Below are positions 53,277 through 64,000 of a DNA stretch of 64,000 nt, piece by piece. The position numbers were made by a program, and so were the translations under genes. Under the pieces are notes generated by a model, which did not search any database, was not told the origin of the DNA, and saw only the letters and a program-made list of their open reading frames with translations. The stretch spans positions 486-64,485 of the forward strand of contig DATEGE010000194.1 in NCBI GenBank assembly GCA_035280265.1, given 5' to 3'. Position 1 is the stretch's first letter, and each line of letters opens with the position of its first letter. This stretch comes from Gemmatimonadales bacterium (GTDB taxonomy: Bacteria; Gemmatimonadota; Gemmatimonadetes; Gemmatimonadales; GWC2-71-9).

Positions 53277-54260
53277 ATGATAAATACGGTCAGGTGGACG
53301 CTGTGCGTCGGGGCGGGGCTGGTCCTCGCGATGCAGACGCCGAGCGTCGTCGAATACCCGCTGCCCCGCGCCAAGGCGTTCCCGCACGACCCCGCGGTGG
53401 GCCGCGACGGCATCGTTTGGTATACCGACCAGGCGAACAGCTACATCGGCCGGCTCGACCCCGCGACGGGGAAGGTGACCGATTATGCCACTCCGACCCC
53501 GGCCTCGGGGCCACACGGCATCGTCGTCGCACCCGATGGTGGCGTATGGTACACGGCGAACTTTCAGGGCCGACTGGGCCGCCTCGATCCCACGACCGGA
53601 GCGATCAAAGAGTACGTGCTCCCCTCCGAAGCGCGCGATCCTCACACGCCGCTATTTCATCAGGGCAAGGTGTGGTTCACAGTCCAAGGCGCGAACCTGT
53701 ACGGCCGGCTCGACCCTGCGACGGGCGAAGCGAAGATCTTCCCGGTCCCCACGCCCCGGGCGCGCCCGTACGGCCTCGTCGCCGGTCCCGACGGCGCGAT
53801 TTGGATGGCGCTGTTCGGCGCCAACAAAATCGGCCGCATCAATCCGGCGGATGGTGCGCTGCGCGAGTTCTCGCTCCCCGACGACGGCGCCCGGCCCCGC
53901 CGCTTGGCAGTGGACGGAAAGGGAATCGTGTGGTACACCGACTACGCCCGCGGCAAGCTCGGCCGGCTCGATCCGACGACGGGACAGGTGCGCGACTTCG
54001 CGAGCCCCGGGGGTCGTGGCAGCGCGCCGTACGGGATCGCCGTCGGCACCGATGGGCGCATCTGGTATGATGAGTCGAGCAAGGACGCGATCGTGGCGTT
54101 CGATCCCGCGACCGAGCGCATACAGACCGTGGCGATCCCCACCCGCGGGTCTGTGGTGCGCAACATGAGCGTGGATTCGACCCGCAAACGGTTATGGCTC
54201 GCCGAGAGTGGCATTCAGCGACTGGGGAAGATCGACCTGACCCAGGCACCGACGCCCTAG
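53277..54260 (+). CDS. Vgb-like (streptogramin-lyase fold) beta-propeller protein
   Basis: Signal peptide followed by about 7 repeats of the type G.(V/I)WYT....(G)RLDP.TG....(F/Y). Confidence 0.7.
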   Translation: MINTVRWTLCVGAGLVLAMQTPSVVEYPLPRAKAFPHDPAVGRDGIVWYTDQANSYIGRLDPATGKVTDYATPTPASGPHGIVVAPDGGVWYTANFQGRLGRLDPTTGAIKEYVLPSEARDPHTPLFHQGKVWFTVQGANLYGRLDPATGEAKIFPVPTPRARPYGLVAGPDGAIWMALFGANKIGRINPADGALREFSLPDDGARPRRLAVDGKGIVWYTDYARGKLGRLDPTTGQVRDFASPGGRGSAPYGIAVGTDGRIWYDESSKDAIVAFDPATERIQTVAIPTRGSVVRNMSVDSTRKRLWLAESGIQRLGKIDLTQAPTP

Positions 54261-54396: not shown

Positions 54397-56538
54397 ATGG
54401 CCACCGATTCGCCGGTCCAGTTCGATCCCCGATCGGTCACCCGCATGTCCCGCGTCGCGCTGGACAATTTCTTCCGCCGAAGTCCCCCCGGACCGATTCC
54501 CGCCGGGCGCGCTCGGGGGACGGCGATCGTTTTCCCCGGGTCGGCGTTCACGGGTATCCTGGCGTCGCTGGCGCGCGCGCTGTTCTGGCAGGGGAAGGTC
54601 TTCACCCCGGAATCCGGCGACCTGCGCAATCTGATCACGCCGTTCGGAGTCCGGGCAATCCGCGCGAAGGTGTACCAAGACGAGAGCTGGTTTGCCAGCG
54701 GGCCGGCAATCATCCTCGACTACTCTCAGACGTCCTTCGTGGCACGGAAGATCCGCGATGAGATCCGCCTCGTGAGCCAGGGTGTCTATCTGGGTCAGGT
54801 TTACTGGGGCAAGCGCCGTATCGCACTGTTCATGCTGCAGTTCCCCACTGACACGCCCGCGCCGAGCCCTCTCGCTGGGGGACGATCGACGGCGACGCTG
54901 TCCGGTGTCGGTGTACTGCTGCAAGGCGTGTGGACGAGGTTTCTGCAGGCAAGCCGCTGGATCGGCGTCACCGTGCTCGCCTCATTGCTGATCGGCGGTG
55001 CCTATGTCTGGGCGCGACTCCGTGACGATCGGCCCGTCACCTACGTCGAGACCCGCGAGCACTTCAAGTATGGCTCGACCGGCGGAGAACGGGGTTGGGG
55101 GACCCATCTCGGGTTTGGGATCCCCTACTGGGTCTGGATCGCGCTGCCCGAACTGTTTCCGGAGTACCTGCCCGACCGCCAGCGCGGGAACGGCTACACG
55201 TCGTTCGGCATGATCTACGAGGATGGGAAGGATCCGCGCTTCGACCTACCGATCGGCATGTCGAGGCGGCGTGTCCAGGGCATCGATCGCGTGTACTTCA
55301 ACTGCGCGGTGTGTCACACGGGCTCGGTACGCCCGGCGCGCGGTGCGCCCCGCGAGGTCGTACTCGGCATGCCGGCCAACACGTTCAACCTGGGCGCGCT
55401 CGCGCAGTTCCTCAATAAGGCCGCGGGGGACTGGAAATTTCGGGCGACGCGCATCATGCCTCGGATCGAAGACCTGGAGGCCCAGCGCGCCGAACAGCCT
55501 CGCTCCCAAAACATTCCCCGACCCAGGCCGTTCAGTCCGGTGGACCGCTTCGTGTTCCGCTACCTCGGCGTCATGTTGCTGCGCGAGCAGCTCCTCACCC
55601 TTACGTCCCGGCTCTCGTTTCTCCGGCTCGACACGTGGGGCCCGGGGCGCGTCGACACGTTCAATCCCCCCAAGGCGCTGCTCGGGTTCCCGATGGAGCG
55701 GGCGCCGGAGCAGGAGAAAGTGGGCGTTGCGGCGTTTCCGGCCGTGTGGAATCAGCAGTGGAAGGAAGGTATGCAGCTCCATTGGGACGGGAACAACACG
55801 AGGGTGGATGAGCGCAACTTGAGCGCGGCGTTCGGGACCGGGGCTACGCCCACGACGCTGGACAAGGCGAGCGTGCTGCGTACCGCCGGCTTCTTGTGGG
55901 ACAAGGCGCGTCCTCCCGCCTTTCCAGCGGGCTACATCCGAGCCGACCTCGCGGCGCGGGGCGAGCCGTTGTATCGCCGGCTGTGCTGGTCCTGCCACGG
56001 CAATGGGCAGCCCCCGTTCCACACGCCTGGCGACGGCAGCCTCGTGGGCATGGTGACGCCGCTCGCCACCCTCGGCACGGACCCGGCCCGACTCGACTCA
56101 TACACGCGCGTCCTTGCGGCCGCGCAGAACTCCTTATACGCGGGGTTCCCGGCCGACGAGGAATGGTGTCGGGAGCGCCCGCGAGATGTGGCGCGCTGCT
56201 ACCCCGCGCGATTCAGCCATTTCCGCAAAACCAACGGTTACGCGAATGTGCCGCTCGACGGCCTATGGCTGCGAGCGCCCTACCTCCATAACGGCTCCGT
56301 GCCCGACCTGCAGGCGTTGCTCGAGCCGGCGCACGCGCGGCCCGCCGTCTTCTATACCGGCTACGACGTGTACGATTACCGGCGCGTCGGCTTCATCACG
56401 CAGGGACCAGACGCCGAGCGGTATGGGTGGCGATTCGACACGAACGTGCGCGGCAATGGCAACAGCGGTCACGAGTTCGGGACGAGCCTCTCGGGTGCCG
56501 ACAAGGCGGCGCTGATCGAGTACCTGAAGACGTTCTAA
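54397..56538 (+). CDS. membrane-anchored dihaem c-type cytochrome, CCP/MauG-like, with extra cytoplasmic N-terminal domain
   Basis: Two CxxCH motifs (CAVCHTG, CWSCHGNG) and a LRAPYLHNGSVPDLQALLEP segment like the conserved APY(F/L)H(D/N)GS..TL of cytochrome c peroxidases. One TM helix (WIGVTVLASLLIGGAYVWARL) follows a ~165-aa N-terminal domain. Paralog of 56579..58177. Confidence 0.6.
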   Translation: MATDSPVQFDPRSVTRMSRVALDNFFRRSPPGPIPAGRARGTAIVFPGSAFTGILASLARALFWQGKVFTPESGDLRNLITPFGVRAIRAKVYQDESWFASGPAIILDYSQTSFVARKIRDEIRLVSQGVYLGQVYWGKRRIALFMLQFPTDTPAPSPLAGGRSTATLSGVGVLLQGVWTRFLQASRWIGVTVLASLLIGGAYVWARLRDDRPVTYVETREHFKYGSTGGERGWGTHLGFGIPYWVWIALPELFPEYLPDRQRGNGYTSFGMIYEDGKDPRFDLPIGMSRRRVQGIDRVYFNCAVCHTGSVRPARGAPREVVLGMPANTFNLGALAQFLNKAAGDWKFRATRIMPRIEDLEAQRAEQPRSQNIPRPRPFSPVDRFVFRYLGVMLLREQLLTLTSRLSFLRLDTWGPGRVDTFNPPKALLGFPMERAPEQEKVGVAAFPAVWNQQWKEGMQLHWDGNNTRVDERNLSAAFGTGATPTTLDKASVLRTAGFLWDKARPPAFPAGYIRADLAARGEPLYRRLCWSCHGNGQPPFHTPGDGSLVGMVTPLATLGTDPARLDSYTRVLAAAQNSLYAGFPADEEWCRERPRDVARCYPARFSHFRKTNGYANVPLDGLWLRAPYLHNGSVPDLQALLEPAHARPAVFYTGYDVYDYRRVGFITQGPDAERYGWRFDTNVRGNGNSGHEFGTSLSGADKAALIEYLKTF

Positions 56539-56578: not shown

Positions 56579-58177
56579 GTGATGCATGACGAGAGCCGGA
56601 CGAACGGCTGGAAGCGCCGCGTGGGCCGTATCCTGATCGTGCTCCTCTTGATTGCCGCGCCACTCGCGGGCTTGGCATGGTACAAGTTCTTCCGGGAATT
56701 GCCTCAGCCAAAGGCGATCACCGAGGATCCCGAGACGAACTTTCTCTACGGGTCAATCGGCTCCGAAAACCAAGCGGGTATCCCATACTGGATCGTGGTG
56801 GTGTTGCCCCGGATCTTCGACGACATGTTGCCCGGTCCCGGCGGCTACGCCTCGCTCGGCCTCCCGTGGAAAGAGGGGGTCGAGCTGCCAGCCGGCTTCT
56901 CCAAGAAGACCGTCGGCTTTCCGCGGGTCGGCTTCAATTGCGCCCTGTGCCACGCCACGCAGTACCGCACGGCGCCTGACGCGACCCCGACGATCGTCGC
57001 CGCCGGCGGCAGCAACACGGCGGACATCCAGGGACTGCTCGAGTTCCTCAGTCGGGCTGCAAACGATTCCCGCTTTGGATCCGAGACGATCATCGCCCAG
57101 ATCGACGTGGCGTATCGGCTGAGCTGGCTGGATCGGCTGCTCTACAAATTCGTGTTCATCCCGATCACCAAGAAGCGCCTGCAACAACAGGGGCGGTCCT
57201 TCGCCTGGGCCGCCCACCGGCCGCGTTGGGGCCCGGGCCGTGACGCGCCGATGAATCTGACCAAATTCAACTTCCTCGGGCTGCCCGTGGACTCGAGTGT
57301 CGACCACACCGACTTCCCGGCGATCTGGAACCTGCAGACGCGGGTGCAGGCCGGCCGAACGTGGCCCGGTGACGACGACGCGCTCACCGGGGATTGGTCG
57401 AAGGTCTCCGGCTACCGGCCCCGCCTGATGCTGATGAACCTCGATGGCGCAACGACATCGTTCCGCTCCGTGATACTCGATTCGGGTCTCGGACTCACTT
57501 CGCGCAGCTCTCCGTTCTTCCTTCGGCGCATGACGGAGCTCGAGACGTGGCTTCTAAAGCTGCCTCCGCCGAAGTATCCGCTGCCGGTGGATTCGGCCAC
57601 CGCGACGCGGGGCAAGGTGGTGTTCGAGCAACAATGCGCCATCTGCCACGCCAGCGGACGTGACAACCGCCTGGGCACCGTTATCCCGCTGCCAGAGATC
57701 GGGACCGACCCGGAGCGGGCGAACGCCTGGACGCAGCAGGCGGCCGACAGCGCTAACCGAGCCGTCCGCGACCAATTCGGGATTCATCGAACGCCGATGG
57801 TGAAGCCCGAGGCGGGCTACGTCGCCCTCCAACTGGACGGGATCTGGCTGCGCGGGCCCTATCTACACAACGGCTCCGTGCCCACGGTGCGTGCCCTGCT
57901 CGAGCCCGAGGAGCGGCGGCCCAAGGCGTTCTATCGCGGGTACGACGTCCTGGATCAGCGGAACCTCGGATTCGTATCCCGGCGCTGCACCGAACACTTC
58001 GCGGAGGCGCCCACCGGCGGCCGGTCGGGCGAGTCCCAATGGGGATGCATGCCCGACACCGACGGCTGGCGATACGACACGGCGGAGCGTGGGAACAGCA
58101 ATCGAGGTCACCGCTACGGGATCCGCCTGAGCGACGCTCAGAAGGCCGAGCTGGTGGAGTACCTCAAGACGTTCTGA
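56579..58177 (+). CDS. membrane-anchored dihaem c-type cytochrome, CCP/MauG-like (paralog)
   Basis: N-terminal TM anchor (ILIVLLLIAAPLAGLAWY), two CxxCH motifs (CALCHAT, CAICHAS) and LRGPYLHNGSVPTVRALLEP. Collinear similarity to 54397..56538 (GIPYW..V.LP.IF, FNCA.CH, KAELVEYLKTF / KAALIEYLKTF). Confidence 0.6.
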   Translation: MMHDESRTNGWKRRVGRILIVLLLIAAPLAGLAWYKFFRELPQPKAITEDPETNFLYGSIGSENQAGIPYWIVVVLPRIFDDMLPGPGGYASLGLPWKEGVELPAGFSKKTVGFPRVGFNCALCHATQYRTAPDATPTIVAAGGSNTADIQGLLEFLSRAANDSRFGSETIIAQIDVAYRLSWLDRLLYKFVFIPITKKRLQQQGRSFAWAAHRPRWGPGRDAPMNLTKFNFLGLPVDSSVDHTDFPAIWNLQTRVQAGRTWPGDDDALTGDWSKVSGYRPRLMLMNLDGATTSFRSVILDSGLGLTSRSSPFFLRRMTELETWLLKLPPPKYPLPVDSATATRGKVVFEQQCAICHASGRDNRLGTVIPLPEIGTDPERANAWTQQAADSANRAVRDQFGIHRTPMVKPEAGYVALQLDGIWLRGPYLHNGSVPTVRALLEPEERRPKAFYRGYDVLDQRNLGFVSRRCTEHFAEAPTGGRSGESQWGCMPDTDGWRYDTAERGNSNRGHRYGIRLSDAQKAELVEYLKTF

Positions 58178-59480
58178 AGCGGACCAGCTTCTCGGGGAAC
58201 GTGAAGGGCACGGGATCGCGAGCCAACACGTCGCAGTGGACGCTGAGACCAGACTCCGCGACTAGCATCGCGGCGGCTCCCTTACAGACGAACAGAATGA
58301 GCTCCCGCCCCGGACAATGGCGCGCGCCGCTCAGGAATACGTTCGGGTAGGCGGCTGCGGCCTTCGCCGGCGTATCCAGCCACCGCTCCGGATGAAAGGC
58401 ATTCGCTGTCTCATCGGCGGCCCGGTCGCGCTGCGTCAGCGAGAAGACGTGGAGGATTTCACTGCCCGGAGGAATGCGGGTGCCCATCATGACGTCCCCC
58501 GCGGGGGCCCGGTGAAACGTGCGGGTGACCGGTGGAAAGAGCCTTCCCGCCTCCAGGAGGCAGGCCTCGAGATAGCGCAATCGATCGATCGACGCGGGTG
58601 CGTCGAGTGGGCCCGCGCCGGCGATCTCGCGGCGCACCCCCGCGAGGACTTCCGGCCTCGACCCGATCAGCGCGAGGCCCCGGGCGAGGAGGTCGGCGCC
58701 GGAGCCTGAAAAGGTGAACATCCAATGCGGCATCTGCTGTAGCAGCGCCTCGGGGTTTCCATCCGCACCGGCCGCTCGCGCGATCCCGAGCAAGCTGGTG
58801 CGCGCCGCGCCGTCGGACCGTTGTCCCCCCTGTCCCGCCAGTCCCCCCCACGCTTGTCGCAGGCTGCCGTACAGCACGCGGAGCCGGCGCCGCTCGATGG
58901 CTCCCCACAGCAGGCGCTTGAGCGGACTCTGCACCAGGCCGAACAACACGCGAATGTCCGCGCTGAGGCGTTCGGGCGCAACGCGCTCACCGAAGACGAT
59001 GTTCAGCATCGCCTGTCCCATGCGGTCGCGAACATCCGCGACCGTCGCGACGGGCCCGGAGAACGCCCGGCGCGCGTGGCCGAGGAACTCACGCTGGAAG
59101 TCGTGCGGCCTCCCCGCGCACAGCACCCGCTCGTTGAAGGGACGCAGTCGCTGCCACGCCGCGTCGTCCGTGATGGTGAGCGCCTGGGGTGCCAGGTAGC
59201 TCATCGCCTTGCGTTTGAGCGTGCCAGCAACGTACGCCGTGGTGCGTGGCTGCCCGGCGAGAATGTGACGAGAGAGATTTTGGTCCGTCACAAGCAACAG
59301 TCGCAATGCGAGGAGATTCAGGACCACATTGGCGCTGTGGTAGCGCACCGTCAGGTCTTTCATCCAGTCGTGCAACACCAGGCTCGGGTCGAACGAACGC
59401 GGTGCGCGCACGGCCGCCTTCAGTAGCCGTGACCCCAGCCTGCAGAGATCGAGGAAGCTGGTCGTGGGATAAGTATTCAC
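58164..59480 (-). CDS. cytochrome P450 (atypical I-helix)
   Basis: Cys-ligand loop FLSGARHCPGRELILF, an ExxR-like EAGR and a PERF-like FHPERW. The I-helix region FSGSGADLL lacks the (D/E)-T pair. Start placed at GTG 59480, which shares one nt with the upstream stop (TAGTG). The track start at 59534 is an alternative. Confidence 0.75.
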   Translation of the reverse strand: MNTYPTTSFLDLCRLGSRLLKAAVRAPRSFDPSLVLHDWMKDLTVRYHSANVVLNLLALRLLLVTDQNLSRHILAGQPRTTAYVAGTLKRKAMSYLAPQALTITDDAAWQRLRPFNERVLCAGRPHDFQREFLGHARRAFSGPVATVADVRDRMGQAMLNIVFGERVAPERLSADIRVLFGLVQSPLKRLLWGAIERRRLRVLYGSLRQAWGGLAGQGGQRSDGAARTSLLGIARAAGADGNPEALLQQMPHWMFTFSGSGADLLARGLALIGSRPEVLAGVRREIAGAGPLDAPASIDRLRYLEACLLEAGRLFPPVTRTFHRAPAGDVMMGTRIPPGSEILHVFSLTQRDRAADETANAFHPERWLDTPAKAAAAYPNVFLSGARHCPGRELILFVCKGAAAMLVAESGLSVHCDVLARDPVPFTFPEKLVRFRTS

Positions 59481-62263
59481 TACTGCCGCGGCCCGAACGC
59501 CTCGTCCGATTCCGCGCCCTTCCTCGGCTTCCACTCGAGCGAGTAGTACTCCCCACGGTCACGGGCCCAGGGATCGAACGCGTTCACCACCTGGGTCAGC
59601 TCGGGCGTGAGCTCCGGGAGAGTACGGAGCAGTATCCGCTTCAGCGGAGACACTGGCTGGTGCTCGTGACCATTCACGGCTTGTTCCTCGTACGCAGGTG
59701 CCGGGCCGTTGTCATTGACCCAGTCGACGCCGAGGCTCGTGTAGAACTCCGGGCGAAAGCTGGACGTGAAGAAGCGGTCGCTGTAGAGGCGCCGCGAGGC
59801 GTTCAGGATGAAGACCACGAACTGCGTCTCCGAAATGGCGAAACCGTGCGGCCGGGTCGATTCGGCGAGCCAGCCGACCACCGTGTCGATGTCCTCGACG
59901 TTGTCGACCAGCGACCCGTCCGGGTGGCCGAGACAATCGTTGATCGCCCGGCCGCCGGTGTCCAGCTGAGCCAGGGTGATCACCTTGCTACTGTCACACC
60001 GATGTTGTCCATACACCTCGCGCAAGGTGGCTACCAGCTTGGCCTGCGCCTTCCGGTCCTCGGCACTCTCCGAGAATCGCTGGTCGATGAAGTCGTCGAA
60101 GCTCGTGAGTTGGCGCAGCCCGTATTGTCTTCGGAACTCGTTGAAGCGAGGGACGCCTCGCTCGCGATCGCGAATCAAGTCCAGGGCGGCCACGTCGAGC
60201 CTCTGCGTAGGGCTCGTGAGCCGGCGCATGTAGAGGTTCTGCAGGAAGCGCGGGTGGTTCTGGAGCGCGAGCAAGCCGAGGCGTTGCCGACCCATGCTCA
60301 GCGCCCAGTTGGCCAGCCCGCGTTCATGCATGAGATCGGTCGCCTTACCTCGAAACGTCGCGACGACGGGGATCTTCTGCGTGATGTCGTTGGGGTTCGC
60401 GACCTCTCGATATTCGATCAGGTCCGGCACCAAGGGATGGAGCCGGTAGACGGTCACGAACTCTTCCGGGAAGTTGAACGGCGAGCCGAAGTGATTGGCG
60501 CCACCGTTGACATCGTCCGGATTGGAGAGACTCCAATCCGGCTTGTGGCTGCCCAGTCCGAAGATCCCGGGGCCGGACGCAAGGATCGAATACCACGTGT
60601 TGGCGTCGCTGGCGGACGCTGATCGGCCCAGGTGCGACACCGCGGCGGCGAGTGCCTCCGAGACCCCGCTTTCCTTCCCCAGGAGCCCGTTCCAATTGCT
60701 GTTCATCCCGCGGTACAGAGGCTCGTCGTACAGCAGCTGCGTCGTCCACTCGATCGTGTGGATCTTCGCGATCTCCGCGGCAACGACGAGGCGCGCGGCC
60801 TCGAACAGCTCGTCGGGCGTGACATCGCGATACCGGATCACGTGCTGCGGGTTCGCAGGGTCGCGCAGTCCCGAATCCCCGTCGGGGTTCTGGGCCGTGC
60901 GGCGACGGAACTCGTCCACGAACTGATTGTGCTCGCGAGCGAAGACGTTGTGAAAGAAACTCAGCCCGATCGTCCAGTTGTCGGGGAACCCGGTGGCCTC
61001 TTGACCCGCCCAGTCCGGGTTCATCGGATCGAAGGGCGCCAGCACCGGGAGATACCCCTGCCGATCACCGGCGGCAGTCGCCGTCGGGACCGCGATCATC
61101 AGCAGCCGGGCAGGATCGCGCGGATCGCGCTTCACACGCAATCGGGAGCGTTGATCGTAGCCGTACAGTTGCGACGCGTCCCACCACGCCGTGTTCGTGT
61201 TCCGGAAGGTCTTCGGTGCCCGCGCCAGGTACTCGCGGCCGTCGCGCACGAACCGGCCGGGTGCGCTCGTGTCGCCCACGTAAGCCCGCTCCATCGCGTC
61301 GCCGGGCCGGCACCCGAGGCGTCCGGCCTCCGCCGCCGAGAGCGCGCAGCCCACGTTCATGTACTCCGAGCTGTTGTGCCCCTCTTCGAGGTGCGAGAAC
61401 CAGTCATGGGTCATGAACTGGATCCAGAACGCCGCCAGCACATTGAAGAACGGGGCCTTCTTGTAATCGCAATTGGCGTCCTTGGCGAACCTCGGCTTGC
61501 CGTAGCCATCCGCACAGGCTGCGCTGTCGGATTGGGCTCGCGTAAACAGCTTGCGACTGATCACCTGCGGATCCGGCCTCATCAGGCTCAACCGGTTGCC
61601 GTGACGGTTGCGGGTGATCTCGTTCAGGCCGGCATCTGGAAACGTGGTCTCGAACTCCACGTTTCGGGCGAACGGTGTTCCCGTGGACCCCATGAGGGGG
61701 TTGCGGATGTCGTTACAGATCCCGGTGAGCGTACGGGATCGGATGAGCGCGGCCCGGCAGAGCTGCGGTCCGCTGCCGCCTACCTCACGGTAGTTGGGAT
61801 GAGAGGGGGGCAGACGCATCTCGGGCCACGTCTTGAGCGCCGGCCCCTCGGTGCTGTCGCGACCCATCCGATACTGCGGGAAGGTGCCGTTGTTGTCGAA
61901 CAGGTTGAACTTGATGAGCTCGACGCGCTCGTACTCCAGGTCCACCAGCGCGCCGTTAACGCCTCGCATGTTTCGCGTCGACCAGAACGACTTCGTCGCA
62001 GCGTCCCCAGCACCGTAGTAGTTCGCCCAATCGACCCACGGCACGCCGCGCCGCTGCACCGCGGTTTCGCCGCCGCGGCACCGGGCGGTGCTCGATTGCA
62101 CTTTGGCTTGGAATCGATGGTCGCGACTCGCCGCGATGGGCCGCGCGCCGCTGCTGATATCATCGACGCAGCCCATGAGACTCGAGGCCACGCCCTTGGT
62201 CCTGTCGCAGGATGCCAGCGCGAGCGCCAGGCCGCCGGCCAGGAGACACGGAGTTCCGCGCAT
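59480..62263 (-). CDS. haem fatty-acid dioxygenase-like lipoprotein (animal haem peroxidase / cyclooxygenase superfamily, alpha-dioxygenase-like)
   Basis: FFNVLAAFWIQFMTHDWFSHLEEG (distal His region, very close to the plant alpha-DOX WIQFMIHDW signature), NTAWWDASQLYG, FPEEFVTVYRLHPLVPD (candidate catalytic Tyr), LIRDRERGVPRFNEFRRQYGL and VEDIDTVVGWLAE. Lipoprotein signal MRGTPCLLAGGLALALASC. ATG 62263 is preceded by GGAGG at 5 nt. Confidence 0.75.
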   Translation of the reverse strand: MRGTPCLLAGGLALALASCDRTKGVASSLMGCVDDISSGARPIAASRDHRFQAKVQSSTARCRGGETAVQRRGVPWVDWANYYGAGDAATKSFWSTRNMRGVNGALVDLEYERVELIKFNLFDNNGTFPQYRMGRDSTEGPALKTWPEMRLPPSHPNYREVGGSGPQLCRAALIRSRTLTGICNDIRNPLMGSTGTPFARNVEFETTFPDAGLNEITRNRHGNRLSLMRPDPQVISRKLFTRAQSDSAACADGYGKPRFAKDANCDYKKAPFFNVLAAFWIQFMTHDWFSHLEEGHNSSEYMNVGCALSAAEAGRLGCRPGDAMERAYVGDTSAPGRFVRDGREYLARAPKTFRNTNTAWWDASQLYGYDQRSRLRVKRDPRDPARLLMIAVPTATAAGDRQGYLPVLAPFDPMNPDWAGQEATGFPDNWTIGLSFFHNVFAREHNQFVDEFRRRTAQNPDGDSGLRDPANPQHVIRYRDVTPDELFEAARLVVAAEIAKIHTIEWTTQLLYDEPLYRGMNSNWNGLLGKESGVSEALAAAVSHLGRSASASDANTWYSILASGPGIFGLGSHKPDWSLSNPDDVNGGANHFGSPFNFPEEFVTVYRLHPLVPDLIEYREVANPNDITQKIPVVATFRGKATDLMHERGLANWALSMGRQRLGLLALQNHPRFLQNLYMRRLTSPTQRLDVAALDLIRDRERGVPRFNEFRRQYGLRQLTSFDDFIDQRFSESAEDRKAQAKLVATLREVYGQHRCDSSKVITLAQLDTGGRAINDCLGHPDGSLVDNVEDIDTVVGWLAESTRPHGFAISETQFVVFILNASRRLYSDRFFTSSFRPEFYTSLGVDWVNDNGPAPAYEEQAVNGHEHQPVSPLKRILLRTLPELTPELTQVVNAFDPWARDRGEYYSLEWKPRKGAESDEAFGPRQ

Positions 62264-62319
62264 GTCAACCTCCGCCATCACCGTCCAGCCCGGAGGTTAG
62301 GGCGTTGGGGGAGCGCGAA

Positions 62320-62463: not shown

Positions 62464-64000
62464 ATGCAGACGCCCCGGTTACTCCGCAGCTCCCTCGAAC
62501 GGATCGGACTCACCATCCCGCCGCGCTCCGCCGAGGAGGCGCCGCTGCCGTTGTGTCTCATCCTCGAAGAGGAATACCGGCGGCTCCACCCCGAGCACCC
62601 GCTGGAGCTCACGTGGCTGCTCGAGCCCGATCACGTGCTCGACCTGCCCCGATTGGCCTCCAAGCTCACCACCGCCGACGATCCGGCGGCGGCTTGGCTG
62701 GCGGGCCAACTCTCCACGGAGACGACTCCTCTCCTCAGGCGCTCCGTGCGGGGCGAGGCGGTGCCCCGGCAGCAGGTGTTGTCGGCATTACTGAAGGACC
62801 TCAACTGGCTACTCGAGAAGGATTCGCTCGGCGCGCATCGCGCGTTCGCGAGTCTCCGCCTTCCCCGCATCACCGCCGACTTGCTCGCGCGGCAGCCCGA
62901 TGGGGACGCACGTGTGCACCTGAACCGCCTCCTCCTGGAGGCCGCGTTCCCGGACGCCCTGGCGCGCATTCACGCGGTGCGCCTCACCGCGTTCTACGTC
63001 GCGACCCAGCAGCACTCCACGACCGCCCTGTGTCTATCGGGAGGCGGAATTCGCAGCGCGACTTTCGCGCTCGGCCTGCTGCAAGCGCTGGCACGGCACG
63101 GGGTGTTGCAAGAGTTCGATTACCTCTCGACGGTCTCCGGCGGCGGCTACATCGGAAGCTGGCTCACCGGATGGATTCATCGGGTCGGCCGCGAGGCGGC
63201 GATCGACGCACTACGCCGTAGCGTGGCGGGGGACGCGCCCGACCTGCCGGGCAAGCCGAGGGATCCTGTGGAGCCCGAGCCCGTGCCTATCCGACAGCTG
63301 CGAGCCTACAGTAACTACCTCGCGCCACGCTTAGGCCTGCTCTCAGCCGACACGTGGACGCTCTTGGCGATCTACCTGCGCAACCTATTCCTGAATTGGC
63401 TCGTCATTCTGCCCCTCCTCGCTGCGGTGTTGCTGCTCCCGATCTTGGCGGTGACGGTTGTCCGCGCGCACGTCGTGGTGTCGCTCGCCCCGTGGCGCTC
63501 CGTCGTCCCTTGGGCCATGGCGGTCGGATTGGCGCTCGCCGTGCTCGCCATCCGTTACGTCCACGCGCAGTGGCCGAGTAAGCAGGCGTCGCGTCCGCCC
63601 AGCGCGCGAAGCCCCCACCCCAGCGACCAGCGGCAATTCTTGCGGCGGTGCCTCCTGCCGCTGTTGGGGGCGACCGCCTTGCTTACGACGGTGTGGGCGT
63701 GGCTCACGACAGCGGGAACCTCGCTGGTGCCGCCGCTCGCCTGGAACATGGCGGGCGTGACACTGCACTCGAGCGCACCACTCGGATTCGCCGCCATCGG
63801 TGGCTTGTTGCACCTGAGCGGGTGGCTGCTCACGCCACGTCGGCTCGTCCCGCTCACGCTGCTGCAGGGCGTGGTGGTCCTGATGACCGGCGCCATCGGT
63901 GGGCTGGTCGCGTACGCCGCGGCAGCGGAGCTGTTCGGCGAGCAGTGGAGCGAGGACGCTCCGGCCGCCGAGTGGTACGTGTGCTTTGCGGCCCCGCTGT
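62464..64000 (+). CDS. patatin-like phospholipase with multi-TM region (3' end outside window; absent from ORF track)
   Basis: I translated this frame by eye from ATG 62464 to the window end and found no stop. It has an oxyanion motif CLSGGGIRSATFALGLLQAL and a nucleophile elbow DYLSTVSGGGYIGSW, followed by several hydrophobic helices (LVILPLLAAVLLLPILAV, AMAVGLALAVLAI, ...). GGAG lies 5 nt upstream of the ATG. Confidence 0.7.
   Translation, partial: MQTPRLLRSSLERIGLTIPPRSAEEAPLPLCLILEEEYRRLHPEHPLELTWLLEPDHVLDLPRLASKLTTADDPAAAWLAGQLSTETTPLLRRSVRGEAVPRQQVLSALLKDLNWLLEKDSLGAHRAFASLRLPRITADLLARQPDGDARVHLNRLLLEAAFPDALARIHAVRLTAFYVATQQHSTTALCLSGGGIRSATFALGLLQALARHGVLQEFDYLSTVSGGGYIGSWLTGWIHRVGREAAIDALRRSVAGDAPDLPGKPRDPVEPEPVPIRQLRAYSNYLAPRLGLLSADTWTLLAIYLRNLFLNWLVILPLLAAVLLLPILAVTVVRAHVVVSLAPWRSVVPWAMAVGLALAVLAIRYVHAQWPSKQASRPPSARSPHPSDQRQFLRRCLLPLLGATALLTTVWAWLTTAGTSLVPPLAWNMAGVTLHSSAPLGFAAIGGLLHLSGWLLTPRRLVPLTLLQGVVVLMTGAIGGLVAYAAAAELFGEQWSEDAPAAEWYVCFAAPL

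Follow-up and report, generated by a model that had tools for sequence, protein, structure and literature searches.

The window analysed in this study is a stretch of 64,000 nt (G+C 67.8%) on contig DATEGE010000194.1 of a Gemmatimonadales bacterium (assembly GCA_035280265.1), and it contains a gene pair encoding an alpha-dioxygenase-like haem dioxygenase (DOX) and a cytochrome P450 (P450, CYP). We see an even chance that the window holds part of a conserved bacterial lipid-oxygenation cluster, the core of which is an enzyme of the alpha-dioxygenase (alpha-DOX) type together with a dedicated P450 that acts on the DOX product. Animals and fungi are known to pair a haem fatty-acid dioxygenase with a peroxide-rearranging P450: in animals, cyclooxygenase (COX) works with thromboxane or prostacyclin synthase, and in fungi the DOX and CYP parts are fused. 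The recurrence of the DOX/P450 pair in many phyla points to an undescribed bacterial pathway for oxidised lipids.

Organisation of the gene pair

The pair occupies two neighbouring open reading frames (ORFs) of the minus strand, 59480..62281 with 933 codons and 58164..59534 with 456 codons. The most probable DOX start is ATG 62263, 5 nt 3′ of a GGAGG motif. Read on the minus strand, the junction of the two genes is CAG TAG TGA AT; the DOX stop codon TAG (59482..59480) shares its G with a GTG (59480..59478) that is in frame with the P450 and forms codon 19 of the 456-codon ORF. A preliminary description of this DNA had pointed out the shared G, together with the 55-nt overlap that a longer P450 start at 59534 would create, and both statements are exact in the sequence. 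The long start itself is rejected by the N-termini of homologues. In an alignment of 23 homologues, most N-termini fall at Val19 and residues 22–41 are conserved, and GTG 59480 is therefore likely to be the real P450 start. The public gene call (P0001), which begins at Val42, leaves out the conserved residues 22–41 and is too short.

No Shine-Dalgarno motif is seen in the sequence before the start at 59480, which fits a termination-reinitiation mechanism carried out by the terminating ribosomes. Single 1-nt overlaps are common in bacterial operons. Across the related loci described below, the P450 start codon overlaps the DOX stop or is at most 13 nt away in about 16 of the 21 that carry a long DOX, and a scan of the region between the two genes found no promoter-like or terminator-like site. 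These findings support the earlier proposal that DOX and P450, whose ORFs are distinct and divided by a stop codon, constitute one tightly, translationally coupled unit.

Conservation of the pairing

P450 loci were collected by scanning one genome per species with an alignment of the P450, which returned 63 loci from other genomes. These span Cyanobacteria (Moorena, Aulosira), Chloroflexota, Gemmatimonadota, Alpha-/Gammaproteobacteria, Acidobacteriota, Actinomycetota, Bacteroidota and Verrucomicrobiota, about eight phyla; the isolates Thioalkalivibrio denitrificans and Thioalkalicoccus limnaeus are among the carriers in the Alpha-/Gammaproteobacteria group. A DOX homologue is present in 59 of the 63, and the four others are contigs cut off beside the P450. 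The adjacency of the two families, which the preliminary description had left open as possibly unique to this genome, is thus widespread.

The order DOX then P450, which had been likened to that of the fungal fusions, holds in the window and is reversed in Dehalococcoidia, Moorena and other loci. Most loci of the reversed, Dehalococcoidia type have a junction between −8 and +53 nt (from an overlap of 8 nt to a gap of 53 nt), and the spacer in Moorena is about 310 nt. Judged from these arrangements, tight co-expression is conserved and the order of the genes is not.

The dependence between the partners is one-sided. The P450 almost always has a DOX beside it, and the DOX often stands alone: all seven close DOX homologues (67–75% identical) whose long contigs were inspected lack a neighbouring P450. 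Because DOX homologues occur without the P450, it is the P450 that depends on the DOX and not the reverse, a pattern expected of an accessory enzyme acting on the DOX product.

The dioxygenase is of the alpha-dioxygenase type

The best solved relatives of the DOX are the rice and Arabidopsis alpha-DOX (E-values of 1e-56 and 1.5e-53; chains 4kvj, 4kvl and 4hhr), and no COX chain was found at E≤1e-3 in the PDB sequence search. Peroxidase structures match weakly, peroxinectin at 6e-5 and lactoperoxidase at 2e-4, with the 6e-5 match extending over 39 residues. The family comprises more than 2400 homologues, which carry only the names 'peroxidase family protein' or 'hypothetical'.

The four motifs listed in Table 1, for which residues are numbered in the 933-codon ORF, supply the equivalents of the distal and proximal His, the catalytic Tyr and the carboxylate-binding residues of alpha-DOX. 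The register of the VYRLH alignment is fixed by chain 4kvl, which has Phe at the aligned Tyr position. The long and short forms of the P450-linked enzyme alike conserve these residues. A third, divergent DOX-like form, present in loci L039, L046 and L049, has an insertion between the Tyr and the His of the VYRLH motif, and the DOX of L006 has Arg at the distal His position. His311 and Arg559 of alpha-DOX have been described as key residues for fatty-acid oxygenation and carboxylate binding (Koszelak-Rosenblum 2008, as cited in PMC8720084). The linoleate diol synthases (LDS) and 10S-DOX retain an equivalent of COX Tyr348 (PMC13049297); the present DOX lacks it, carrying Ile507 at this position, and has the alpha-DOX His in its place as His508. 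Our alignments therefore speak against the earlier view of the pair as the bacterial counterpart of the fungal Ppo/LDS enzymes. The DOX is of the plant and cyanobacterial alpha-dioxygenase type and not of the fungal Ppo/LDS type, so that its expected product would be a 2-hydroperoxide, formed by oxygenation at C2 of a fatty acid.

At the N-terminus, the DOX has a lipobox signal, MRGTPCLLAGGLALALAS-C, and a motif search placed a lipobox-like motif between residues 1 and 60 in 101 of 120 homologues. The enzyme is accordingly predicted to be an exported lipoprotein. It also possesses an N-terminal extension of 180 residues with conserved cysteines, which has no counterpart in known alpha-DOX. In the Dehalococcoidia-type DOX (L011, L012, L016 and similar loci), the N-terminus consists of a TPR-like region and hydrophobic segments, and there is no lipoprotein signal; the Moorena DOX has neither the signal nor the TPR-like region. 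Because the N-termini differ in this way, the localisation of the DOX differs between lineages.

The P450 belongs to a compact family with an altered I-helix

The Pfam p450 model matches weakly (3e-13) and only over the C-terminal third of the protein. The P450 has 392 close homologues and belongs to a compact family: about 35–40 clusters at 50% identity score above 200 bits and, after a gap, a sister family follows at about 190 bits. The canonical P450 elements are present, namely ExxR, PERW and the Cys pocket FLSGARHCPG, in which the Arg two residues before the Cys is invariant.

AlphaFold2 (AF2) models of the P450 and of a beta-barrel protein described below were built from database homologues. 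The P450 model has a predicted local distance difference test score (pLDDT) of 90, and its fold matches have template-modelling (TM) scores of 0.65–0.73 at 14–20% identity; the best are CYP97, CYP3A, BM3, CYP120 and CYP184A1. Sequence and profile searches found CYP170A1, CYP184A1, CYP51 and CYP3A4. CYP3A4 and CYP5A1 belong to one clan. No CYP74 or CYP8A entry occurs among the 60 best sequence matches or the 50 best fold matches. The P450 is in none of the known hydroperoxide-rearranging families and stands apart from CYP74, CYP8A and the fungal CYP domains.

The difference from O2-activating P450s lies in the I-helix, where Gly277-Ser278 stands at the positions of their acid–Thr pair. The family consensus is QxPHWMFTF(T/S)GSG(T/A)D, with Gly277 near-invariant. 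The sister family shares the PHWMF element, reads HWMFA-x-x-[DE]-T and keeps [DE]-T in the same columns (P0396, P0398, P0399 and others). CYP184A1 and the CYP4F8 motif given in PMC13049297 support the same register. Loss of the acid of the pair is specific to the DOX-linked P450 family. No conserved ferredoxin-like ORF was found in the 64 loci; a regular-expression scan gave scattered, mostly spurious matches. The Gly-Ser I-helix and the lack of a conserved ferredoxin together favour, although they do not prove, a P450 that would act downstream of the DOX and would not use the usual proton relay to activate O2.

Neither the P450 nor the barrel protein carries a signal for export. No fusion of DOX and P450 was found among the 150 best representatives of the P450 family, in which the long matches were tandem eukaryotic P450 gene models. 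The fusion search instead revealed a fusion of the P450 with the beta-barrel.

A beta-barrel and di-haem cytochromes c accompany the pair

The predicted beta-barrel, whose model weakly resembles fatty-acid-binding proteins (FABP) and lipocalins, is encoded in most genomes by a separate gene directly after the P450 gene; 31 related loci have the barrel, and in the majority of them it stands alone. Its 675 homologues are all named 'hypothetical' and have no Pfam domain. In P0369 and L024 (10007-11764) the P450 continues at its C-terminus into the barrel, and in the window (54397-56538), L033, L045 and L050 a fusion joins the barrel, a transmembrane (membrane-spanning) helix and a di-haem cytochrome c domain. 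The two kinds of fusion tie the P450, the barrel and the di-haem proteins together. The AF2 model of the barrel has a pLDDT of 82.5, and its best Foldseek match is 4mve, a structure of unknown function (TM score 0.58, E 6e-6); FABP, CRABP and lipocalin structures match weakly (TM score about 0.4, E about 0.03). We also considered an allene oxide cyclase, and no such structure occurs among the 50 best fold matches.

Both di-haem proteins of the window contain the RoxA-like_Cyt-c domain (PF21419; 4e-14 and 2.5e-15) and score above the cut-off of the NCBIfam model NF040606 for di-haem cytochrome c peroxidase, the first with 169 bits against a cut-off of 150. For the second, the PDB sequence search matched RoxA alone (4b2n, 1.3e-9). 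An assignment as rubber oxygenase was rejected, with RoxA/B/C equivalog models giving 55–80 bits against cut-offs of 900–1000. The two genes lie downstream of the P450 on the other strand and converge with it; because the di-haem genes follow the P450 on the same strand in most type I relatives (see below), the arrangement in the window is an inversion. The P450 and second di-haem genes share 14 nt at their 3′ ends, which leaves no space for a terminator between them. Domains of c-type haem are necessarily periplasmic, and a single predicted transmembrane helix separates the barrel from the di-haem domain; the barrel should therefore be cytoplasmic, and so, by association, should the P450. Among RoxA relatives, only PA2077 (a 10S-dioxygenase) and PA2078 (a 7,10-diol synthase, which is a hydroperoxide isomerase) have been described as active on fatty acids (PMC4496055).

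Three cluster layouts occur across the loci. Type I, to which the window belongs (14 loci), has the di-haem proteins. Type II (21 loci) combines an OYE-type flavoprotein and a di-haem protein with the P450 and a TPR/membrane-anchored DOX. In type III (16 loci), a DyP-like protein and two further proteins replace the di-haem proteins. The accessory genes have a lipid theme: the FABP-like barrel, patatin-like and Tle1-like phospholipases (the latter in seven loci), the OYE-type flavoprotein, a weak lipoxygenase-like match and the RoxA-like di-haem pair.

The fusions from P450 to barrel and from barrel to di-haem domain raise the possibility that the P450 partners mainly the barrel and the di-haem cytochromes, and that a RoxA-like protein handles the DOX hydroperoxide in the periplasm, as PA2078 does with the PA2077 product, in a cluster that remodels or detoxifies oxidised membrane lipids. 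The DOX and the di-haem proteins are predicted to share the periplasmic side, and the spacing of the haem motifs (227 and 232 aa) is near that of PA2077/PA2078 (245/235 aa), the value for RoxA being 199 aa (PMC4496055). The comparison with PA2077/PA2078 covers motif spacing and tandem arrangement, and the 16 type III loci have DOX, P450 and barrel (the barrel being absent only in the short contig L027) without a di-haem protein. A cluster can thus do without the di-haem proteins but not without the DOX, and we consider this explanation improbable.

A further alternative, to which we give very little credence, is that the substrates are not fatty acids and are instead polyisoprenoid, carotenoid, aromatic, peptide or other hydrophobic compounds, in which case the DOX might be a peroxidase. 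RoxA cleaves polyisoprene, type III clusters contain DyP-like proteins, the An_peroxidase family includes true peroxidases, and the N-terminal 180 residues of the DOX stand without a counterpart in known alpha-DOX. Set against these points, all known carboxylate-binding and tyrosyl-radical residues of alpha-DOX are conserved in the DOX, the peroxidase structures match it as weakly as stated above, the rubber-oxygenase equivalog scores fall far below their cut-offs, and phospholipases and the FABP-like barrel recur among the loci.

A proposed pathway and its weak points

Returning to a dedicated P450 that acts on the DOX product, we infer from the observed gene anatomy, conservation of the pairing, residues, fusions and localisation signals a route whose substrates, products and independence of redox partners may be sketched as follows. 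A phospholipase, here the patatin-like one, would release fatty acids. The lipoprotein DOX, on the outer face of the cytoplasmic membrane, would abstract the C2 hydrogen by means of its tyrosyl radical and add O2, giving a 2-hydroperoxy fatty acid; this step is deduced from the conservation of the catalytic residues. On the cytoplasmic side, the P450 and the FABP-like barrel may convert the 2-hydroperoxide, or the aldehyde or 2-hydroxy acid to which it gives rise, and would need no dedicated redox chain. The peroxide O–O bond would then supply the oxidising equivalents to the P450, as in CYP74, CYP5A, CYP8A and the fungal DOX-fused CYPs. In the periplasm, the two RoxA-like di-haem cytochromes c may act on the same lipid pool. 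We infer, as did the preliminary description, that the P450 would act on the DOX hydroperoxide. However, because the DOX carries a lipoprotein signal and the P450 no signal, a direct hand-over like that within the fused fungal enzymes is unlikely here.

A more far-reaching possibility, which we regard as doubtful, is a hitherto unknown trans-membrane bacterial oxylipin pathway. It would involve a P450 of a new family that subjects a 2-hydroperoxy fatty acid to a new kind of rearrangement (for example, of the lyase, diol-synthase or dehydratase type) and an FABP-like barrel serving as carrier or cyclase, and it would represent an unfused prokaryotic state for understanding the partnerships of haem-DOX and P450, such as fungal DOX-CYP and COX with CYP5/CYP8.

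Several observations weigh against a P450 that uses the DOX product. Export is predicted for the DOX and not for the P450 and barrel, which lack an export signal, so that the predicted compartments do not match and the labile 2-hydroperoxide would need to cross the membrane. To our knowledge, no P450 uses 2-hydroperoxides. The partners that really handle the hydroperoxide could be the di-haem proteins. The products of alpha-DOX decay spontaneously to aldehydes (PMC9305512). Lastly, the identities of P450 and DOX are incongruent across the loci. The window P450 is 50–53% identical to the P450s of Moorena and Pyrinomonadaceae, whose DOX are only 30% identical to that of the window, and 42–46% identical to P450s that adjoin DOX of 60–70% identity; in L015, the DOX is 81% identical and the P450 only 51%.

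Apart from the I-helix acid, moreover, the P450 looks ordinary, with its canonical Arg-containing Cys pocket, ExxR, PERW and a Ser at the Thr position. Bacterial P450s are often served by unlinked ferredoxins. The nearest solved relatives in sequence and fold (CYP51, CYP3A4, CYP120, CYP97, CYP184A1 and BM3) are all redox-partner-dependent monooxygenases or, in the last case, BM3. Self-sufficient P450s share no universal sequence signature, and Asn, a nonpolar residue or Thr may occupy the I-helix position in them (PMC13049297); the loss of the I-helix acid is for this reason suggestive only.

These features would suit a different role in the same pathway, that of an ordinary O2- and NAD(P)H-dependent monooxygenase which works with an unlinked ferredoxin and reductase and hydroxylates, epoxidises or deformylates a fatty acid, the Cn-1 aldehyde or another cytoplasmic lipid, the DOX hydroperoxide not being the oxygen donor. 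Ser278 could replace the I-helix Thr, the predicted compartments of DOX and P450 differ, and the type II OYE-like flavoprotein, with its CxxCxxC-x11-C motif, might pass electrons. What makes this role unlikely in our view, though far from negligible, is that the I-helix acid is Gly throughout the family when the sister family keeps Asp/Glu, that no ferredoxin or reductase is conserved in the 64 loci, and that a general fatty-acid hydroxylase needs no strict DOX neighbour. If the P450 were nonetheless an ordinary monooxygenase, the cluster would still be an unstudied bacterial lipid-oxidation pathway, and its evolutionary interest would be lower.

A pair present in many phyla would offer oxylipin biochemists a tractable prokaryotic system, with cultured carriers in Thioalkalivibrio denitrificans ALJD, Thioalkalicoccus limnaeus Um2 and Moorena producens 3L. 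The products of alpha-DOX may here undergo a P450 reaction that is new. The clusters also bring to light an FABP-like protein family, itself new, with a function tied to the P450, and they give a physiological context for the very abundant, unstudied bacterial lipoproteins annotated as 'peroxidase family'.

Comparison with known systems

The DOX has in common with alpha-DOX (rice 4KVJ, Arabidopsis 4HHR, and CsDOX, CalDOX and LepDOX) the haem fold, a His on the distal and one on the proximal side, the Tyr of VYRxH, and the equivalents of His311 and Arg558/559. It differs from them in its length of about 930 aa, which includes the 180-residue Cys-containing N-terminal extension, in its lipoprotein signal and in its coupling to a P450. 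Putative alpha-DOX have already been noted in Proteobacteria, Actinobacteria, Acidobacteria and Bacteroidetes (PMC8720084), and only three cyanobacterial alpha-DOX have been characterised (PMC9305512); neither of these papers describes a P450 partner of an alpha-DOX.

As in the fungal DOX-CYP fusions (Ppo, the linoleate diol synthases, 8/9-allene oxide synthase (8/9-AOS) and 10R-epoxyalcohol synthase (10R-EAS)), a P450 is linked at the gene level to a haem dioxygenase of the peroxidase-cyclooxygenase superfamily, and the order in the window is the same. The present pair, in contrast, is unfused, its order is reversed in other phyla, and its predicted compartments differ. The Cys pocket likewise separates the two groups, since it reads HxC in the CYP partners of LDS (PMC13049297) and RxC in the present P450. 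The pairs of COX with CYP5A1/CYP8A1 and of lipoxygenase (LOX) with CYP74 follow the same logic as that proposed here, in which a lipid peroxide is rearranged by a P450 that needs no redox chain. Of the I-helix acid-alcohol pair, which is non-canonical in those enzymes, the present P450 has lost the acid and keeps an alcohol, Ser278. Neither CYP74 nor CYP8A, however, appears among the best sequence or fold matches of the present P450, and its Cys loop is canonical, unlike that of CYP74.

The 10S-DOX of Nostoc punctiforme, with a catalase-related hydroperoxide lyase, is a prokaryotic COX-like DOX that has a separately encoded, hydroperoxide-transforming haem enzyme (PMC13049297, citing Brash 2014). 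The partner in the window is a P450 and not catalase-related, and the DOX is of the alpha-DOX and not the 10S-DOX type. The oleate diol synthase of Pseudomonas aeruginosa, PA2077/PA2078 (FadCcp), and RoxA offer the parallel of tandem, membrane-associated or periplasmic RoxA-like di-haem cytochromes c with similar haem-motif spacing (PMC4496055); in the window such proteins accompany a DOX/P450 pair, and one is fused to a barrel predicted to be cytoplasmic. Our full-text literature searches, whose coverage leaves out most subscription journals, found no description of a bacterial DOX/P450 pair, and in a 2026 review of DOX and their CYP companions the Nostoc 10S-DOX with its catalase-related lyase is the only prokaryotic case (PMC13049297). 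The present system is one that would work like the fungal and animal DOX/CYP partnerships and is not a member of those families.

Table 1. Coordinates of the gene pair, its motifs and the neighbouring features in the window
Feature	Position	Strand	Details and basis
Alpha-dioxygenase-like haem dioxygenase (DOX)	59480..62263	-	927 aa from ATG 62263; mechanical ORF to 62281; Pfam An_peroxidase 3e-68
Predicted lipoprotein-type signal peptide of DOX, MRGTPCLLAGGLALALASC	62207..62263	-	lipobox Cys is residue 19; read from sequence
FMTHDW motif with distal haem His292	61400..61417	-	aligns with FMVHDW of rice alpha-DOX; conserved in P450-linked DOX
AKIHTIEW motif; His508 equivalent to alpha-DOX His311, Ile507 at COX Tyr348 position	60746..60769	-	4kvj alignment, conservation
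VYRLH motif; Tyr612 equivalent to catalytic Tyr379, His615 to proximal His382	60437..60451	-	4kvj and 4kvl alignments
ASRRL motif; Arg830/Arg831 equivalent to alpha-DOX Arg558/Arg559, carboxylate-binding	59786..59800	-	alignment, conservation
TAGTG junction; DOX stop TAG and P450 start GTG share one G	59478..59482	-	sequence; equivalent junctions in related loci
P450 of compact, divergent family	58164..59480	-	438 aa from GTG 59480; Pfam p450 3e-13
I-helix of P450, QMPHWMFTFSGSGADLLARGL	58674..58736	-	Gly277-Ser278 (456-codon numbering) at acid-Thr pair of O2-activating P450s
Overlap (14 nt) of the convergent 3′ ends of P450 and second di-haem genes	58164..58177	.	ORF coordinates, sequence
FABP/lipocalin-like beta-barrel domain, about 150 aa	54397..54855	+	N-terminus of first di-haem protein (713 aa)
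Single predicted transmembrane helix (WIGVTVLASLLIGGAYVWA) between barrel and di-haem domain	54958..55014	+	hydropathy scan
RoxA-like di-haem cytochrome c domain	55015..56538	+	haem motifs CAVCH (residue 303) and CWSCH (residue 530), numbered in the 713-aa protein
Second RoxA-like di-haem cytochrome c, 532 aa, with N-terminal membrane anchor	56579..58177	+	CALCH at residue 121, CAICH at residue 353
Patatin-like phospholipase with membrane segments	62464..64000	+	runs off the window; alternative start ATG 62359

Flanking genes and further observations

The patatin-like gene, which is divergent from the DOX gene in the window, shows the third-position G+C (GC3) of coding sequence, encodes GGGIRS and VSGGG and matches Pfam Patatin at 2.5e-9. 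Patatin homologues adjoin the DOX in six other loci (L027, L032, L052, L053, L059 and L068), of which L068 (3846-6851) is a locus with a solo DOX and has the patatin gene directly upstream of it. Just upstream of the first di-haem gene lies a gene for a Vgb-lyase-like beta-propeller (53277-54260, plus strand; Pfam 2.4e-62), and a 34%-identical relative is located about 5 kb from the P450 in L008 and L009, a link that is possibly coincidental. An involvement in anti-phage defence was considered and set aside, PADLOC having given no matches for four proteins.

The genes that replace the di-haem proteins in type III (L039 11827-15919; L052 11742-13037; L024 13087-15828) encode a weakly DyP-like protein and proteins of about 431–443 aa and about 424 aa, and neither of the latter two has a Pfam or PDB sequence match. 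The DyP-like and 424-aa parts form a single ORF in L024. A motif-based guess that the 424-aa protein is a catalase-related haemoprotein was dropped, since Pfam and PDB sequence searches gave it no support. In type II, the OYE-family flavoprotein (L011 7066-8373 and 20 other loci; Pfam Oxidored_FMN 3e-63) ends in the CxxCxxC-x11-C motif, and its gene adjoins that of a 140-aa membrane protein with no Pfam match. Propylenella-type loci (L020 5333-7087; L014, L022 and L061) encode a 584-aa protein between the DOX and OYE genes, and its lipoxygenase match, seen in these four loci, is borderline (23.5 bits against a cut-off of 23.6).

The loci in which the DOX occurs without the P450 (L064-L069, 67–75% identical) often lack the barrel and di-haem genes as well. 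In one of them, L065, the solo DOX gene stands beside a bacterial gasdermin gene and a CHAT protease gene.

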